Program-made: the position numbers and the translations under genes
Shown here: one piece after another, positions 8,080 through 49,421 of the stretch
How the letters are laid out: each line of letters opens with the position of its first letter
Numbering within the stretch: position 1 is the stretch's first letter
Assembly (NCBI GenBank): GCA_023484515.1
Contig: JAMDAY010000001.1
Coordinates: 758-64,757, forward strand
DNA: 64,000 nucleotides
Source of the DNA: Patescibacteria group bacterium
GTDB lineage: Bacteria; Patescibacteriota; Doudnabacteria; UBA920
Reading direction: 5' to 3'
The notes under the pieces: model-generated
Told to the model about the DNA's origin: nothing
The model's database searches: none
The model's input: the letters and a program-made list of their open reading frames with translations, nothing else

Positions 8080-9360
8080 ATGAAAAAAATATTAATTAGC
8101 CTTAGCGTTATTGGGGTTGTGGCGGCGGCTGCGGTTATAGGGACGCAGGCTTTGTTTACCGACCAGGAAACTTCTTCGGGCAACGTGTTTACCGCAGGGT
8201 CTATAGACCTGAAAGTAGACCATTTGGTGCAGACTTATAATGGCGTGAATTGCAATACTTGCAGTGTGACGGTTGTGAGCGACGCAACCAACGAAGTAGT
8301 GGCAAAATCGGAAAACGGGACTGATCCGGTAACATTGCCGCATCCTGCCGTGTTGGTTAACCCGATTAATCCTGCCTGGACGGCAAATGTGCCTGGCGCA
8401 AGCTGGATTTGGGCGCAGAACCCTACGCCAGAAGCAGAATACGGCATAGACACAATCTATACCTTTGAAAAAACCTTTAACTGGATGGGTCCGGTGACTG
8501 GAGCGACTTTGGTGCTAAGCATCGGCGCAGACAACAGTTACGAGGTGTATTTGAACGGAAGCCATGTTACCGGTGACAATACGGAGCAGAATTATAATAC
8601 CGCTGGTCAAGACGTTGTTAGCGGCACGCCTATTTCCGACCATATCGTCCAAGGAGTAAATACTTTGCGTTTTGTGGTTAAAAATTGGGCCAGACCTGCC
8701 GGTCAAACCTGGCTTAATCCGGGCGGCTTAATTTATAAATTAACCATAGACGGTAATTGCGGAGATAGCGAATTCAAAAACCACTGCACCTTGTTCGGCG
8801 AGAAAAATTTGGGGCCGGATGACCATTTCTGGATAATAGACGACGTTAAGCCGGGGGATTATGGCACAAACCTTATTAGCCTGCATGTAACTAGCAACGA
8901 CGCTTATGCCTGCTTGTATACCGGCAATACCGCGGATAACGAAAACGACCTGGTTAATGCCGAAACCAAAGCAAACGATGACACCCCAAATGAAGGCGAA
9001 CTTTCCAAGTATCTTAATGTGATAGTCTGGCCGGATAATGGCGACGGTATCCATCAGGTTTCCGAAACTCCCATATACAACGGGCCGTTAAATGAGGAGA
9101 TGACTTCGCGATTGGCAATTGTTGGCGGTGGGACTGAGTACTTGGGCCTGGCATGGTGTGCTGGAGATCAGGATATAGACAGCGAGACAGGGACAATCTC
9201 TTGCGACGGTTCCGGCAGCCAGAATGACGCGCAGACCGACTCGTTTGTAGCGGACCTGACCGCTTATGCGGTGCAGCAGAGGAATAATGGGAATTTCTCT
9301 TGCAGTGACCTTCGGCAGGTTAATGGTACGGTTGTAACCGGCGAAGGATTAAACGATTAA
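8080..9360 (+). CDS. TasA/camelysin-like secreted protein paralog with an inserted beta-rich domain
   Basis: The N-terminus MKKILISLSVIGVVAAAAVIGTQALFTDQETSSGNVFTAGSIDLKVD is SipW-cognate. It shares blocks with the upstream paralog (DVKPGDYGTNLISLHVTSNDAYAC vs DVKPGDFGENTIGLQVTNNDAWVC; C-terminal …QQRNNGNFSC vs …QSRNNDDFRC). An insertion of about 180 aa lies between these blocks. Confidence 0.7.
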   Translation: MKKILISLSVIGVVAAAAVIGTQALFTDQETSSGNVFTAGSIDLKVDHLVQTYNGVNCNTCSVTVVSDATNEVVAKSENGTDPVTLPHPAVLVNPINPAWTANVPGASWIWAQNPTPEAEYGIDTIYTFEKTFNWMGPVTGATLVLSIGADNSYEVYLNGSHVTGDNTEQNYNTAGQDVVSGTPISDHIVQGVNTLRFVVKNWARPAGQTWLNPGGLIYKLTIDGNCGDSEFKNHCTLFGEKNLGPDDHFWIIDDVKPGDYGTNLISLHVTSNDAYACLYTGNTADNENDLVNAETKANDDTPNEGELSKYLNVIVWPDNGDGIHQVSETPIYNGPLNEEMTSRLAIVGGGTEYLGLAWCAGDQDIDSETGTISCDGSGSQNDAQTDSFVADLTAYAVQQRNNGNFSCSDLRQVNGTVVTGEGLND

Positions 9361-9503
9361 AGTTCCTTTTCCCGCCCGGCAGGCTGAAATATTTACTTAA
9401 TTATTTACTTTAATATTTAAGTAAATATTTACTTAAATCAGCCAAAGCCGGGCGGGAGGGGGAGGCTTTAATCTCTCTTGTTGATTTTTAAAGCAGCTTT
9501 GTC

Positions 9504-10076
9504 ATGAAAACCATTGGCAAAATAATTGAATATCTGCTTTATTTGGCAATTGCGGCTATTGCGGCTTTGGTGCTGGCCAGCGCTTTGCCCGTGCCGGGCG
9601 GGGTGAAGATTTTCGTGGTGCAGTCGGGCAGCATGGAGCCGGCCATTAAAACCGGCAGCGTGGTTATAGATATGCCGCAAGCCGCGTATAAAATTGGCGA
9701 CGTTATTACCTTCGGGCCATACAGCAAAGCCAAGCCCCCCGTAACCCACCGCGTTGCCGACTTCCGCCTGCAGTCCGGCCAGCCAATTTACATTACCAAG
9801 GGCGATGCCAACAACGCCGCGGATGCGCGGGAGGTTTTGCCGCGCGACGTAATCGGCAAAGTCAGGCTGGCCGTGCCTTACGCCGGCTATGCCGTGGCAG
9901 CCGCGAAAAAGCCTTTGGGTTTCGCCCTGCTTATTATAGTCCCGGCAGCCATTATTATTTTCAGCGAACTGAACAAGATTTGGACGGAAGTAAAAAGAAT
10001 GCGCGCGAAAAAGAAAGAATCCCCGCAGCCGGCAAAAGAGCCGCCGCAGCCGGCAGGCGAAAACCCCGGCTATTGA
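9504..10076 (+). CDS. sipW: Signal peptidase I, SipW type (archaeal/eukaryotic-like S26B)
   Basis: VVQSGSMEPAIKTGSVVID catalytic Ser block, VTHRV and GDANN motifs, and TM helices at both ends. The TGA stop lies inside the 85-bp repeat at 10070-10156. Confidence 0.85.
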   Translation: MKTIGKIIEYLLYLAIAAIAALVLASALPVPGGVKIFVVQSGSMEPAIKTGSVVIDMPQAAYKIGDVITFGPYSKAKPPVTHRVADFRLQSGQPIYITKGDANNAADAREVLPRDVIGKVRLAVPYAGYAVAAAKKPLGFALLIIVPAAIIIFSELNKIWTEVKRMRAKKKESPQPAKEPPQPAGENPGY

Positions 10077-10156
10077 TCTCCGCAAAATCAGTTGAACAAA
10101 TTTGGGCTTACTGAAAACAAAAATTATTCAAGATAATATGCGGGCCTCAATAGCCT
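10070..10156 (+). repeat. 85-bp dispersed repeat, copy 1 (copy 2 at 49335-49421, about 93% identical)
   Basis: tattgatctccgcaaaatcagttgaacaaatttgggcttactga[a/t]aacaaaaattattcaagataatatgcgggcc… occurs at both loci. It contains a possible promoter, TTACTG-N18-GATAAT. Confidence 0.8.
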
Positions 10157-10173
10157 AAGCAAAGCCGCGGAGC

Positions 10174-10227
10174 TTCTCCCCTCATAAGGGGAGATGTCGC
10201 GCCTGGCGCGACAGAGAGGTTGCAGCT
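10174..10227 (+). repeat. 54-bp direct repeat, left copy flanking the DUF559 gene (hairpins ctcccct…aggggag and gtcgcgcc-tg-gcgcgac)
   Basis: Nearly identical to 10662-10715. Each copy contains two short perfect palindromes. The left copy ends in GAGAGGttgcagctATG, so it supplies the ribosome-binding site for the DUF559 ORF. Confidence 0.85.
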
Positions 10228-10602
10228 ATGGTTAAAAGAATTATTTTTGAACCTTACTTAACCAATTCCCGCCAGCAAAGAAAGAGCCAAAATCCCTGGG
10301 AATCCAAATTATGGCAGCATTTACGGGCAAATAGATTTTATAATTTACATTTTAAGAGACAAGTTCAAATCGGATGCTATATTTTTGATTTTTCCTGCAG
10401 GAATAAAATGTTGTTAATTGAACTTGACGGTAGCCAGCATGGCGGGGAAATAATTTTAAGAAAAGACCGTGATAAGCAAAAATTTGCGGAAAAGCAAGGA
10501 TATAAAGTTTTAAGGTTCTGGAATAATGACGTTGACAAAAATACCCGAGGCGTTCTGGAAACTATTAAGGAAGCCTGTGGTATTAACACAACCTCTCCCT
10601 AA
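10228..10602 (+). CDS. DUF559 endonuclease-domain protein (Vsr-like / restriction endonuclease-like fold)
   Basis: The 124-aa product has the characteristic …CYIFDFSCRNKMLLIELDGSQHG…KDRDKQKFAEKQGYKVLRFWNNDV… pattern of DUF559 proteins. Confidence 0.75.
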   Translation: MVKRIIFEPYLTNSRQQRKSQNPWESKLWQHLRANRFYNLHFKRQVQIGCYIFDFSCRNKMLLIELDGSQHGGEIILRKDRDKQKFAEKQGYKVLRFWNNDVDKNTRGVLETIKEACGINTTSP

Positions 10603-10661
10603 CCCTCCCCTCAAAAGGGGAGGGGAGCTCCGCAGCCAGCCTTGGAACAGTGGCGGCAGCC

Positions 10662-10715
10662 TTCTCCCCCTATGAGGGGAGATGTCGCGCCTGGCGCGAC
10701 AGAGAGGTTGCAGCT
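10662..10715 (+). repeat. 54-bp direct repeat, right copy flanking the DUF559 gene
   Basis: Same sequence as 10174-10227 with two substitutions. Confidence 0.85.
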
Positions 10716-10748
10716 TAAGGAGAGAAAAGCGTTTAATTTTTATTTTCA

Positions 10749-13022
10749 ATGCCAAAAAAATCCCAAAAAATTAATATGCGCCAAACGCGGTGTTATGGGA
10801 AGAGTGAATCAGTTGTATCCACTGCGGACCAGAACATTAGCCGGCCAAACAGCGGCCAAACCCGCCCCATTTGCGCGCGTTTGAGTTTGTCGGAATTATT
10901 GCGAGAGGGTCGCCATGATTTGGGATTGGCGCGGCAACAAATACCGTTAAACCTCATTTTAAAAAAATTTGCCGCTGTGTCACTGGCCTGCGGCTTAATT
11001 GGCTCCTTTTTGCCCGCGGCTTTCCAGCCGACTGTTGCTTTTTACGACGACATAGAAACGTCTTCCGGCAACGCCATTGTCGCCGGCAGCCTGGATTTTT
11101 CTTTGGATTCGCCGGGCTTTGCGTTGTCGGAAATCTCCTTGGAGGCTGCGGCAACGTCAACTGTCTCCATTTTGGACCATAGCAGCCTGCCTTTCCAATA
11201 CAATGTCAGAAGCGAAGTAACCGGCGGCGACAGCGACTTTTGCAACGCGCTTATTTTGTCCGCCAGCTTAAACAACGCGCCGCAAGGCCAGGAACCTCTC
11301 TCGTCTTACGTTTCCCCGGACAACATCTTTTCCACCACCACTCCCACCTGGCAAATCCAGGCCGGTTTTGCCGCCGGAACGCCGGACTTTTTGCAGGACA
11401 AGCAATGCGGCTTTAAAATAATCTATACCGGCTGGCAGGATAATCTTGCTACCAGCACCGAAGGCTTTAGCGACATAGAAGAAACATCTTTTAACTTAAT
11501 CTACCGCACGCCTTTAAAGGTTAAGATTAACAAAGTTTACGCCAATCCCGATGTTGCCCACGGGATTAATACGGATAACGAATGGATAGAGCTTTATAAT
11601 ACAGACTCCGCGCCCGTAAATATTTCCAATTGGACCATAAGCGACAACAGTTCTACCGACACTCTGGCTTCCACCAGCCCGCTAATTATTCCGGCAGGCG
11701 GCTATGCCATTATAACCGACAAACCAAGTACCTGGGATTATTGGGAAATTCCCGGCAACGTGTTAAAGATTGCGCTTAACAGCCCTATTGGGAATGGATT
11801 GAACGATGGCGGCGATCTCCTGATATTGAAAGACAGCGACGGCAAGATTATGGATTGGATGAATTGGGGCGCCGGGACAACCAAGTATGGCGTAACTTTC
11901 TGGAACCCGGGCGTAACCGCTCCGGCAAAGGGTGATTTTCTCGCCCGAGTACCAAGCGGCACAGACACAGATTCGCCAGCTGACTGGCAGGGCTTAAAAG
12001 CGCCTTTTGCAACTTTGGACTATCCGGTTGGCGGGGAAGTGTGGTATGCCGGGCATACCGAAACTTTGCGCTGGACCGCGCATAATCCCAACGGCAGCGA
12101 CGACGAGTTAAAAATAGATTTATATTATTCCCGCGACAGCGGCGCGACTTGGGCAATCATTGTTACCGGCACGCCCAATACCGGAAGCTATGACTGGCGC
12201 ATCCCACTGTTTTTGGAAGACGGCAGCTACTACGTGCCTTCGCATATCTCCCGCATAAAAGTGGTGGCCACGGGCCCGGAAAACTTTATGGTGCAGTCCG
12301 AAGACAGCAGCGAAGATTTCTGCCCGCCCATAGACTATAATATGTTGACCCCGCAGGAGCAGGAACTGGTGGATTGGCTGCTGCAAACGGGCACAATCCC
12401 GGCGAGTGAAGTTATTTACGGCGGCATGCCCCAGGGATTTTCCGGCAGCAGTCTTGTTGATGCTGATCCGGCGAATGAAAATGTATTGAAGGAAGAACAA
12501 TCTACGCTGGAAAATATTGGTAATAATGAATTGCCGGCAACGGATATATTGGAAACGTCTAATGCGACGGAGCAGGCAGGCGAACCGCAGCCAGCGGAAG
12601 ATCTTGGCGAGGGCGAAGATGAATTATTGGCGCCAGACGGAAATGTTCAGCCAGCCGCAGATTTTCAAACTGGCCCTGCCAAAGATATAACTATGGAATC
12701 CCCAGAATCCCAAGAGCAGCCGGAACAGGCTACGGCAAAATCCGAAGCCATCCCGATTCCAGACCAGCCTGGCGCTGAAGACCAAAATATTCCTAACGGG
12801 CCGTCCGGCAATCCTGACGCTGTTTTGCCAAATCCCGAACAAGATCCGGCGCCGGAAATTCCTGTTTTAGAGCCGCAAACGGCCGCCCCAGAACCGGAAG
12901 CCGGCGCACCGAAAGAAAGTTCTCCTGCGGAAACCGTAACCCCTCCGGCTCCTTTGCCGGAAAGCCTGCCCCCGGAACCCGCTCCCGCAGCCGATCCCGT
13001 TGCCGCGGCAGAGGGGGAATAA
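10749..13022 (+). CDS. Large secreted TasA-like protein with a lamin-tail domain (LTD) and a Pro/Glu-rich acidic C-terminal tail; start codon uncertain
   Basis: After a hydrophobic segment (FAAVSLACGLIGSFLPAAFQ) comes the SipW-cognate-like block PTVAFYDDIETSSGNAIVAGSLDFSLD. The lamin-tail domain reads KINKVYANPDVAHGINTDNEWIELYNTDSAPVNISNWTISDN…IIPAGGYAIIT. The last ~200 aa are low-complexity and E/P/A-rich. The true start is probably downstream of 10749 (no ATG directly precedes the signal peptide). Confidence 0.65.
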   Translation: MPKKSQKINMRQTRCYGKSESVVSTADQNISRPNSGQTRPICARLSLSELLREGRHDLGLARQQIPLNLILKKFAAVSLACGLIGSFLPAAFQPTVAFYDDIETSSGNAIVAGSLDFSLDSPGFALSEISLEAAATSTVSILDHSSLPFQYNVRSEVTGGDSDFCNALILSASLNNAPQGQEPLSSYVSPDNIFSTTTPTWQIQAGFAAGTPDFLQDKQCGFKIIYTGWQDNLATSTEGFSDIEETSFNLIYRTPLKVKINKVYANPDVAHGINTDNEWIELYNTDSAPVNISNWTISDNSSTDTLASTSPLIIPAGGYAIITDKPSTWDYWEIPGNVLKIALNSPIGNGLNDGGDLLILKDSDGKIMDWMNWGAGTTKYGVTFWNPGVTAPAKGDFLARVPSGTDTDSPADWQGLKAPFATLDYPVGGEVWYAGHTETLRWTAHNPNGSDDELKIDLYYSRDSGATWAIIVTGTPNTGSYDWRIPLFLEDGSYYVPSHISRIKVVATGPENFMVQSEDSSEDFCPPIDYNMLTPQEQELVDWLLQTGTIPASEVIYGGMPQGFSGSSLVDADPANENVLKEEQSTLENIGNNELPATDILETSNATEQAGEPQPAEDLGEGEDELLAPDGNVQPAADFQTGPAKDITMESPESQEQPEQATAKSEAIPIPDQPGAEDQNIPNGPSGNPDAVLPNPEQDPAPEIPVLEPQTAAPEPEAGAPKESSPAETVTPPAPLPESLPPEPAPAADPVAAAEGE

Positions 13023-49334: not shown

Positions 49335-49421
49335 TGCTATTGATCTCCGCAAAATCAGTTGAACAAATTTGGGCTTACTGATAACAAAAATTATTCAAGA
49401 TAATATGCGGGCCTTAATAGT
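49335..49421 (+). repeat. 85-bp dispersed repeat, copy 2 (see 10070-10156)
   Basis: Direct sequence identity with 10070-10156. Confidence 0.8.

Follow-up and report, generated by a model that had tools for sequence, protein, structure and literature searches.

The 64,000-nt window analysed here (64 kb; from the 100,725-bp contig JAMDAY010000001.1 of a Patescibacteria group bacterium, assembly GCA_023484515.1) carries a gene for a DUF559 protein within an operon for fibre proteins. Among the nuclease families that are uncharacterised, DUF559 is one of the most common. Between sipW and the gene for a lamin-tail-domain (LTD) protein lies an inserted block, the core of which (10166-10634) is a DUF559 nuclease cassette with imperfect terminal inverted repeats, here termed element E. 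The two direct repeats around the gene, R and R', are a left end and a spare left end of the cassette (E>) and not a duplicated host target. With high confidence, the locus is described as an inserted cassette whose repeats are the flank elements typical of the family. The association of DUF559 genes with E appears to be new; by analogy, it would be comparable to repetitive extragenic palindromic (REP) sequences and their REP-associated tyrosine transposases (RAYTs) or to homing endonuclease genes, but with another enzyme and another repeat architecture.

Structure and insertion of the cassette

A repeat search revealed R and R' as a 55-nt direct repeat pair, identical at 52/55 positions (95%) and 488 nt apart (Table 1). 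The original prediction had described near-identical direct repeats of 54 bp; these are present and are one base longer. All three mismatches lie at the apex of the first hairpin, H1, and the similarity beyond the 55 nt fades gradually, with no sharp edge. The 33-nt identical core of the pair occurred exactly twice in the window and in none of 100 dinucleotide-preserving shuffles. As had been noted before, both copies contain two palindromes, namely H1 (in R' at 10663-10682, with a weaker apex than in R) and H2 (in R' at 10684-10700). After H2, both copies continue with AGAGAGGTTGCAGCT. R ends exactly at the DUF559 ATG, with GAGAGG 6-11 nt upstream of it, and thus supplies the Shine-Dalgarno (SD) and start codon context, as predicted. 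An independent Logan contig (two samples) starts at 10686, the first unique 31-mer past the 41-nt stretch identical between R and R'. Since this contig breaks where the 31-mer graph must break, the duplication is not an assembly artefact of the metagenome-assembled genome (MAG).

A third H1 copy (10603-10624), which had been overlooked, lies in inverted orientation (E<) and separates R' from the DUF559 gene. The pattern CTCCCCT-N4-AGGGGAG, with two mismatches at most, matched three times in the window, always at the cassette, compared to 0.14 matches expected. The inverted repeat of the cassette extends over 10166-10222 and 10589-10634, from GCGGAGCT outside H1 to the half-sites: the left end E> consists of GCGGAGCT, H1, H2 and AGAGAGGTTG, and the right end E< of CAACCTCTCCC, H1 and GAGCTCCGC. 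With R', the left end is present once more, 36 nt past the right end. The 556-nt region 10165-10720 folds as a panhandle (-197 kcal/mol, z-score -6.3), in which the G-half-site (10213-10221) pairs with the C-half-site (10589-10597). When the 3' fragment with E< and R' is folded (10585-10760; -77.2 kcal/mol, z-score -5.2), the C-half-site pairs with 10701-10710. A terminator scan of 9300-11000 found no intrinsic terminator at R, E< or R', the hairpins being followed by G/A-rich sequence and no U-tract. Searches of Rfam 15 remained without relevant match for the window (E<=10) and without any match at the gathering score for the elements in 32 related loci.

Table 1. Positions of the cassette features and of the adjoining genes in the window.
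Feature	Position	Strand	Description
sipW-like signal peptidase gene	9504-10076	+	upstream neighbour; product 64% identical to L091 SipW over residues 1-172; NCBI: signal peptidase I
Repeat Q	10069-10153		85-nt imperfect palindrome, unrelated to E; left part of the inserted block
Outer end of left inverted repeat	10166-10174	+	CGCGGAGCT; pairs with GAGCTCCGC at 10625-10633 (minimum-free-energy fold of 10165-10720)
R, left 55-nt repeat	10173-10227	+	long-form E>: H1, H2 and purine-rich half-site
H1 hairpin of R	10175-10194	+	TCTCCCCT-cata-AGGGGAGA
H2 hairpin of R	10196-10212	+	GTCGCGCC-tg-GCGCGAC; sequence variable, structure conserved
G-half-site of R	10213-10222	+	AGAGAGGTTG; includes SD-like GAGAGG; complementary to 10589-10597
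DUF559 gene	10228-10602	+	124 aa, Vsr-like PD-(D/E)xK nuclease fold, apparently intact, 35.7% GC
C-half-site	10589-10599	+	CAACCTCTCCC; reverse complement of the G-half-site; encodes the last 4 DUF559 codons
H1 of short-form inverted E<	10603-10624	+	CCCTCCCCT-caaa-AGGGGAGGG; directly 3' of the DUF559 stop codon
Spacer between E< and R'	10625-10660	+	last ~22 nt ~65% identical to the 22 nt left of R
R', right 55-nt repeat	10661-10715	+	supernumerary long-form E>, no open reading frame behind it; with E< an inverted REPIN-like '<>' doublet
LTD protein gene	10776-13022	+	downstream neighbour; PF00932

The open reading frame (ORF) between the repeats encodes a Vsr-like DUF559 protein, in agreement with the original prediction. 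It matched PF04480 with E=1.4e-32 and 112.2 bits (cut-off 20.6) over profile positions 5-108 of 109, and it keeps 17/17 family-invariant residues, including D54, E65, D67 and H71. The AlphaFold model (pLDDT 88) matched 3HRL with a TM-score of 0.90 and 33% identity, the homing endonuclease I-Bth0305I (3R3P) with a TM-score of 0.75 (Foldseek E=3.6e-4) and Vsr (1VSR) with a probability of 0.99 (E 0.05), and also the nuclease domains of AbaSI and PvuRts1I. Profile comparison gave E=5.5e-35 for 3HRL and E=3.5e-4 for the I-Bth0305I domain. The likeness to Vsr is structural only, as the Vsr profile PF03852 gave no match at E<=0.01 and only PF04480 and PF18741 were reported. Assignment to the E. coli PRK09767 equivalog was rejected (89.8 bits vs. 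a cut-off of 218 bits for NF007294), and matches to defence proteins were due to shared Vsr-like domains only. An exact-sequence look-up returned no record for the DUF559 protein or for the 757-aa LTD ORF. The model also matched mitoribosomal large-subunit proteins of Toxoplasma and Tetrahymena (probability up to 1.0); thus, Vsr-like domains occur in RNA-bound contexts.

Three orthologous Patescibacteria loci (L091, L216 and L217) share the order TasA-like (M73) genes, SipW, LTD protein and purple-acid-phosphatase-N/FN3 protein. There, sipW and the LTD gene are -14, +49 and -47 nt apart, respectively, as compared to about 700-800 nt in the window, and no DUF559 gene lies between them. The GC content of the DUF559 ORF is 35.7% (35% at third codon positions, GC3), i.e., in the lowest 3.9% of 375-nt windows, while its neighbours have 46-55% (GC3 43-65%). 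Because sipW and the LTD gene abut or overlap in the three orthologous loci and the ORF is of foreign composition, the DUF559 block is an insertion, and the predicted interruption of the tasA-sipW/large-subunit order was confirmed. The empty site with a single repeat copy that had been anticipated for relatives was not found: neither an E-like hairpin nor an R-like sequence was present at the sipW-LTD junction of the three loci, with 8-9 kb around each covered. With at most 64% identity in SipW, these loci are distant from that of the window; close relatives of the source genome were not found. Of the earlier proposal of a small selfish insertion or duplication-mediated cassette, the insertion stands, given the empty orthologous loci and the low GC content. 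That the repeats were made by this insertion, as a target or cassette duplication, was not supported, given R-type units at unrelated DUF559 loci.

Element E at DUF559 genes and elsewhere

Element E was defined as a unit of H1 (consensus CCCTCTCC-loop-GGAGAGGG) and a half-site rich in purines, with or without H2 between them. At least 593 DUF559 relatives were confirmed among the 600 matches listed. The family survey comprised 88 loci from many phyla, in which 77-78 DUF559 genes were scored and 343 ORFs of the same loci served as controls. The closest homologues (65-75% identity) belong to other candidate-phyla-radiation lineages and occupy different, lineage-conserved sites. In Doudnabacteria, the homologues lie between the genes for glycyl-tRNA synthetase (GlyRS) and an M24 peptidase, and in Saccharibacteria between rpe and tkt; GlyRS, M24 and M16 homologues were absent from the window. 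At both sites, a unit of hairpin, hairpin and AGAGAGGTTG precedes the DUF559 gene. The 5' flank of homologues has a C/T-rich hairpin, sometimes a second hairpin and then (A/G)GAGAGGTTG just before the start codon, an R-like architecture found in L006, L010, L068, L033, L022 and others. The 3' flank has CAACCTCTCCC followed by an H1-type hairpin, and equivalents of the hairpin directly behind the stop codon occur in L001, L003, L006 and L010. Being reverse complements of each other, the two flanks enclose the gene as terminal inverted repeats (E> gene E<). Since homologues at unrelated junctions share these flanks, E belongs to the gene and not to the site.

A C/T-rich hairpin was present within 120 nt upstream of 62/77 DUF559 genes (81%) and of 10/343 control ORFs (3%), and within 120 nt downstream of 40/77 and 11/343, respectively, an enrichment of E-type hairpins at DUF559 genes of about 25-fold. 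Within the 525 kb covered, 212 of the 282 such hairpins were less than or equal to 200 nt away from a DUF559 gene. The nearest upstream element was E> in 48/78 genes, and the nearest downstream element was E<, likewise in 48/78. A '<>' doublet downstream of the gene, as in the window, was observed in 14/78 loci (18%), including Saccharibacteria L010 and Sinorhizobium meliloti. These statistics are position-anchored; in a MAFFT alignment of 24 units, which was anchored on the G-arm, the C-arm is out of register. The earlier suggestion of a duplicated REP-like terminator was therefore only partly right: E is REP-like and dispersed in other bacteria, but, having no U-tract and an about 25-fold excess at DUF559 genes, it is no generic terminator.

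H2 was found in 26/57 scored units. Its sequences are unrelated between lineages, yet self-folding (median z-score -2.7), with arm pairs such as GTCGCGCC/GCGCGAC, GGCC/GGCC, GTCAC/GTGAC, GCCGGC/GCCGGC, GCCC/GGGC and others. In H2, the structure is conserved and the sequence is not. The half-sites covary between the two gene ends (GAGAGGTTG/CAACCTCTC, GGGTGAGG/CCTCACCC and GGGGTGGGGTGA/TCACCCCACCCC). The G-half-site contains GGAG/GAGG, and its median distance to the start codon is 14 nt; for the C-half-site, the median distance to the stop codon is 5 nt. Between H1 and half-site, the spacer varies (TTA, TCA, CTA, GTA, CTG, CCG and others). The inverted-repeat alignment score was only modestly higher within loci (median 21) than between loci (median 16) because the family consensus is shared.

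The flanks vary across the family. In the Neisseria homologues (L063, L085), an E-type element follows the stop codon, and the E. coli locus L081 is without E flanks. DUF559 genes in viral contigs are rare (27 loci), and these viral copies keep their E flanks. The order of E copies differs between the related loci L010 and L064. In L084 (3182-4194), a 350-nt DUF559 module is present in 2.9 tandem copies with 95% identity. In L073, seven E hairpins form an array (1427-1665) at a distance of 1.3 kb from the DUF559 gene. In a common variant of E (e.g., L093 3738-3771 and the flank in L075), G-arm and half-site read GGGAGAGGG-TTA-GGGTGAGGG, i.e., four G3 tracts with 3-nt loops. This is a G-quadruplex motif that would compete with H1, and H2 would occupy its central loop; R of the window is without G-quadruplex potential. 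Some database DUF559 proteins (P0002, P0013, P0031, P0071) carry N- or C-terminal extensions, e.g., SLSPFEER... or PSPDVGRPS, which are translated flanking hairpins. These extensions probably are mis-called starts or read-through, and E flanks explain them as spurious parts of the annotations (P0002, P0013, P0071).

In some genomes, E is a REP-like family whose copies are scattered, either singly or as inverted doublets. In metagenomes, an E pattern derived from proteobacterial flanks matched 103 times on 80 contigs, 3 of the matches adjoining a DUF559 gene and 100 being away from one. Many of these copies are REPIN-like inverted doublets with 7-90 nt spacers, and both orientations occur. Among the ORFs located between two E hairpins in the metagenome loci, 1/19 was DUF559, the others being heterogeneous or spurious. 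In S. meliloti, the DUF559 gene has E doublets on both sides, mutually inverted, and the doublet is found at 22 places of a 3.7-Mb replicon with one DUF559 gene. In Azospirillum, DUF559 is located next to prfA in seven replicons (91-100% identity), and E copies are present on other replicons. Downstream of DUF559 in S. meliloti (L213 2380-2560; CP090106.1), an IS4-like ISRm16 is inserted in the second of the two hairpins that make up the E doublet, reminiscent of REP-targeting insertion sequences; the corresponding region of Azospirillum replicon H66 contains an insertion of ~1.1 kb. Further repeat copies, for which a genome-wide search had been suggested, were not found in the window beyond the cassette: its 64 kb hold three E copies, all at the cassette and including the third hairpin, and no dispersed ones. 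Within the window, E is limited to the cassette, with which it evidently came in.

S. meliloti carries annotated RIMEs and Sm-repeats of unknown function (PMC2573895). These rhizobial repeats may be the same elements as E; in the accessible papers, they are not linked to DUF559. No description of flanking repeats at DUF559 genes was found in the literature mentioning DUF559, as far as our limited literature access reached, and nothing relevant was found there for the E sequence strings or for a link between REP and Vsr. Among genes that overlap with inverted repeats, an independent study found an excess of DUF559 and 'endonuclease domain-containing protein' without commenting on DUF559 (Milman et al., PMC9881135), which agrees with a cassette bounded by E.

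Possible roles of nuclease and repeat

The explanation favoured overall is a selfish DUF559 cassette bounded by its own inverted repeats E, for which we see about even chances; a conserved fibre operon would then have been split by a selfish cassette. As to the mechanism, it is tentatively proposed, by analogy, that nuclease and repeat form a selfish unit that is either RAYT/REP-like or similar to a free-standing homing endonuclease. More doubtful still is the wider proposal that the nucleases of the DUF559 family serve as dedicated partners of a cross-phylum REP-like family. E and DUF559 would then constitute a second, mechanistically independent system of REP plus resident enzyme, with a PD-(D/E)xK nicking nuclease in place of the HUH transposase, and the cassette of the window would be its minimal, solitary form, brought into an operon of Patescibacteria. 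The oriented association offers a candidate substrate for the enzyme and a candidate enzyme for the repeats. To our knowledge, neither origin nor function is known for palindromic repeats of intergenic regions, the mosaic elements of rhizobia among them.

The comparison with REP/REPIN sequences and RAYTs is based on shared features. One stable single-copy gene among inverted copies of a scattered repeat is the picture that first linked RAYTs to REPs. In both systems, the gene of a small DNA-cleaving enzyme is present once, is inherited mostly vertically and lies between inverted palindromic repeats. In some genomes other than that of the window, the repeats are likewise dispersed as singlets and inverted doublets and far outnumber the gene, and insertion sequences enter them, such as ISRm16 in the S. 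meliloti doublet. Unlike RAYTs, which are HUH/Y1 (IS200/IS605-like) transposases, DUF559 has the PD-(D/E)xK Vsr-like fold. Moreover, E has no fixed GTAG/CGTC head but is built of a C/T-rich hairpin, a second hairpin in part of the units and a half-site rich in purines; in the window, the repeat does not occur outside the cassette, and the partnership of enzyme and repeat in DUF559 is suggested by position. With Vsr-like (EDxHD) homing endonucleases, e.g., I-Bth0305I, the window protein shares a related catalytic fold, and with their genes the appearance as a small GC-poor ORF between conserved genes that are contiguous in relatives. In contrast to homing endonuclease genes, no intron or intein is involved, and the cassette brings its own inverted repeats. 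DUF559 is also rare in viral contigs, syntenically stable within lineages and without known cleavage target. NGO0050-type DUF559 (3HRL) and E. coli PRK09767 are of the same family; however, the window protein is far below the NF007294 cut-off and E. coli L081 has no E flanks. Like rhizobial RIMEs and Sm-repeats, the element flanking DUF559 in S. meliloti is a palindromic mosaic scattered between genes, at 22 places of a replicon of chromosome size. Unlike the direct repeats around a transposon that duplicates its target site, R and R' are not duplicated host sequence.

In the proposed mechanism, the Vsr-like nuclease would recognise the conserved hairpin of the CCCTCTCC/GGAGAGGG type, be it in duplex, cruciform or single-stranded form, and would nick at or near E. 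Such a nick or break might stimulate recombination or gene conversion, which could maintain, duplicate and occasionally move E copies as well as a gene between two inverted ones. The spare R' may have arisen by tandem duplication or by unequal recombination between E copies; the tandem amplification of DUF559 modules in L084 supports such a duplication origin. A secondary effect on the transcript is conceivable: the 5' half-site with the SD sequence would pair with the 3' half-site and throttle translation of a potentially toxic nuclease, and R' would offer the 3' half-site an alternative pairing partner.

Several points weigh against the selfish cassette and its mechanism. We infer the action of the nuclease on E from proximity alone. 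A 124-aa single-domain nuclease by itself cannot perform strand transfer. DUF559 is syntenic within lineages (GlyRS/M24, rpe/tkt and prfA in the seven Azospirillum replicons), and given this stability, movement must be rare; RAYTs likewise move rarely. Since the 64-kb window has no dispersed E, the target of the nuclease there would be its own flanks only, and with 97% of the dispersed E copies lacking a DUF559 gene nearby, E could be spread by something else. Mismatches in H1 stems were T.G in 11 and C.A in 7 cases, i.e., without strand bias, by which an RNA role is neither supported nor excluded. Finally, VsrA, a DUF559 protein of Caulobacter, was proposed by its authors to act in very-short-patch repair by detecting T:G mismatches (PMC12907096).

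The main alternative, which is rather unlikely, is that E acts as a cis-regulatory RNA, i.e., as a structured untranslated region (UTR) or insulator, in which H1 and H2 stabilise or insulate the transcript and on which the nuclease does not act. The G-half-site would then be the SD and the C-half-site the anti-SD sequence of an mRNA panhandle that keeps a toxic nuclease poorly translated, and dispersed E copies would be generic REP-like 3'-UTR elements. The positions of the half-sites near start (14 nt) and stop (5 nt) codons, their GGAG/GAGG content and the pairing of 10213-10221 with 10589-10597 in the minimum-free-energy fold are in line with this idea, as is the retention of H2 as structure only. 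Arms of the GGAGG/CCUCC type would account for cross-phylum sequence conservation without a protein, and Vsr-like folds occur in RNA contexts (Toxoplasma mitoribosomal proteins). However, an RNA role gives no reason for the 25-fold excess of E at one gene family, nor for a 3' flank that is the full mirror image of the 5' flank, H1 and H2 included. On the sense strand, H1 mismatches are not enriched for G.U-compatible types; dispersed copies of E are found in either orientation and also as doublets, and the elements are without U-tracts. A lower probability still, and a small one, is given to repeats made by the insertion itself: R and R' would be a long target-site duplication, or the 488 bp would be a Campbell-type or tandem-duplication cassette of no wider meaning. 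R and R' are exactly 488 nt apart and 95% identical, the arrangement R, gene, E<, spacer and R' is that expected from a 488-bp circle at a single R or from 1.1 tandem units, and tandem arrays of DUF559 modules exist (L084). Against this, DUF559 genes of other phyla have R-type units in front of them at unrelated loci, and the empty orthologous sites without R imply that R is not the host target. Nor does it fit that the '<>' doublet follows the gene in 14/78 loci and that the similarity decays outside the 55 nt instead of ending sharply. A duplication origin of R' alone is compatible with the selfish cassette.

A housekeeping role in repair is very improbable. Here, DUF559 would be a Vsr-like enzyme nicking at T:G mismatches and serving a cytosine methyltransferase encoded elsewhere, while REP-like elements gather in permissive intergenic DNA. 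The Vsr fold, the stable and syntenic position of the gene within lineages and Caulobacter VsrA, for which the mismatches were proposed to lie in ScmA-methylated motifs (PMC12907096), are consistent with such a role. However, chance explains neither the fixed orientation E> gene E< nor the enrichment of 81% vs. 3%, and E came together with the gene into a region otherwise without E. No cytosine-5 methyltransferase gene adjoins DUF559 in the window, where its neighbours are sipW and the LTD gene, and a Vsr Pfam match at E<=0.01 was lacking. The least credible explanation, to which hardly any weight is given, is an invertible switch, in which the inverted E copies serve as recombination sites and the gene segment flips, resulting in phase-variable expression. 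Inverted repeats of ~45-57 nt do bracket the ORF, and L010 and L064 differ in the order of E. DUF559 was enriched among predicted programmed-inversion targets, with an odds ratio of 14.3 (Milman et al., PMC9881135). This prediction is a regression on repeat features and not validated for DUF559; the E flanks probably explain the appearance of DUF559 among its targets. In addition, no recombinase gene adjoins the cassette, flipping a segment with symmetric ends would leave its relation to E unchanged, and independent assemblies agree with the orientation found in the window.

Neighbouring features of the operon

The left part of the inserted block is formed by repeat Q, which overlaps the last 8 nt of sipW and contains the promoter-like TTACTG-17-GATAAT. 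A second copy of Q at 49336-49420, identical at 83/85 positions, lies between MgtE-like and NRAMP-like genes; Q had no Rfam match. Two Logan contigs that end at 10098 were considered as a sign of population heterogeneity (a branch with the empty site). This was rejected, as repeat Q accounts for these ends. The contig break at 10686 is due to the R/R' repeat, and the breaks speak neither for nor against heterogeneity.

Compared to its L091 orthologue, SipW of the window has an additional 18-aa C-terminal extension. A 21-nt tandem duplication at 10014-10055 (AAAGAATCCCCGCAGCCGGCA / AAAGAGCCGCCGCAGCCGGCA) codes for part of this proline-rich extension. In the LTD gene, homology to orthologues begins at about 10881, the alignment with L091 starting at residue 45 of the 757-aa ORF; the recorded LTD protein P0241 is a 748-aa form.

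Between the second TasA-like gene and sipW, a hairpin of ~120 nt is located at 9355-9473 (-68 kcal/mol, z-score -10.3). At the base of its stem, C and T prevail on the 5' side, G and A on the 3' side, and Rfam gave weak miRNA-like matches only. Also between the TasA-like genes and sipW, a nucleotidyltransferase/HEPN gene pair is present in L091 (2319-3259), from another Patescibacteria MAG. This pair is a different small insertion of the selfish type into the same operon.

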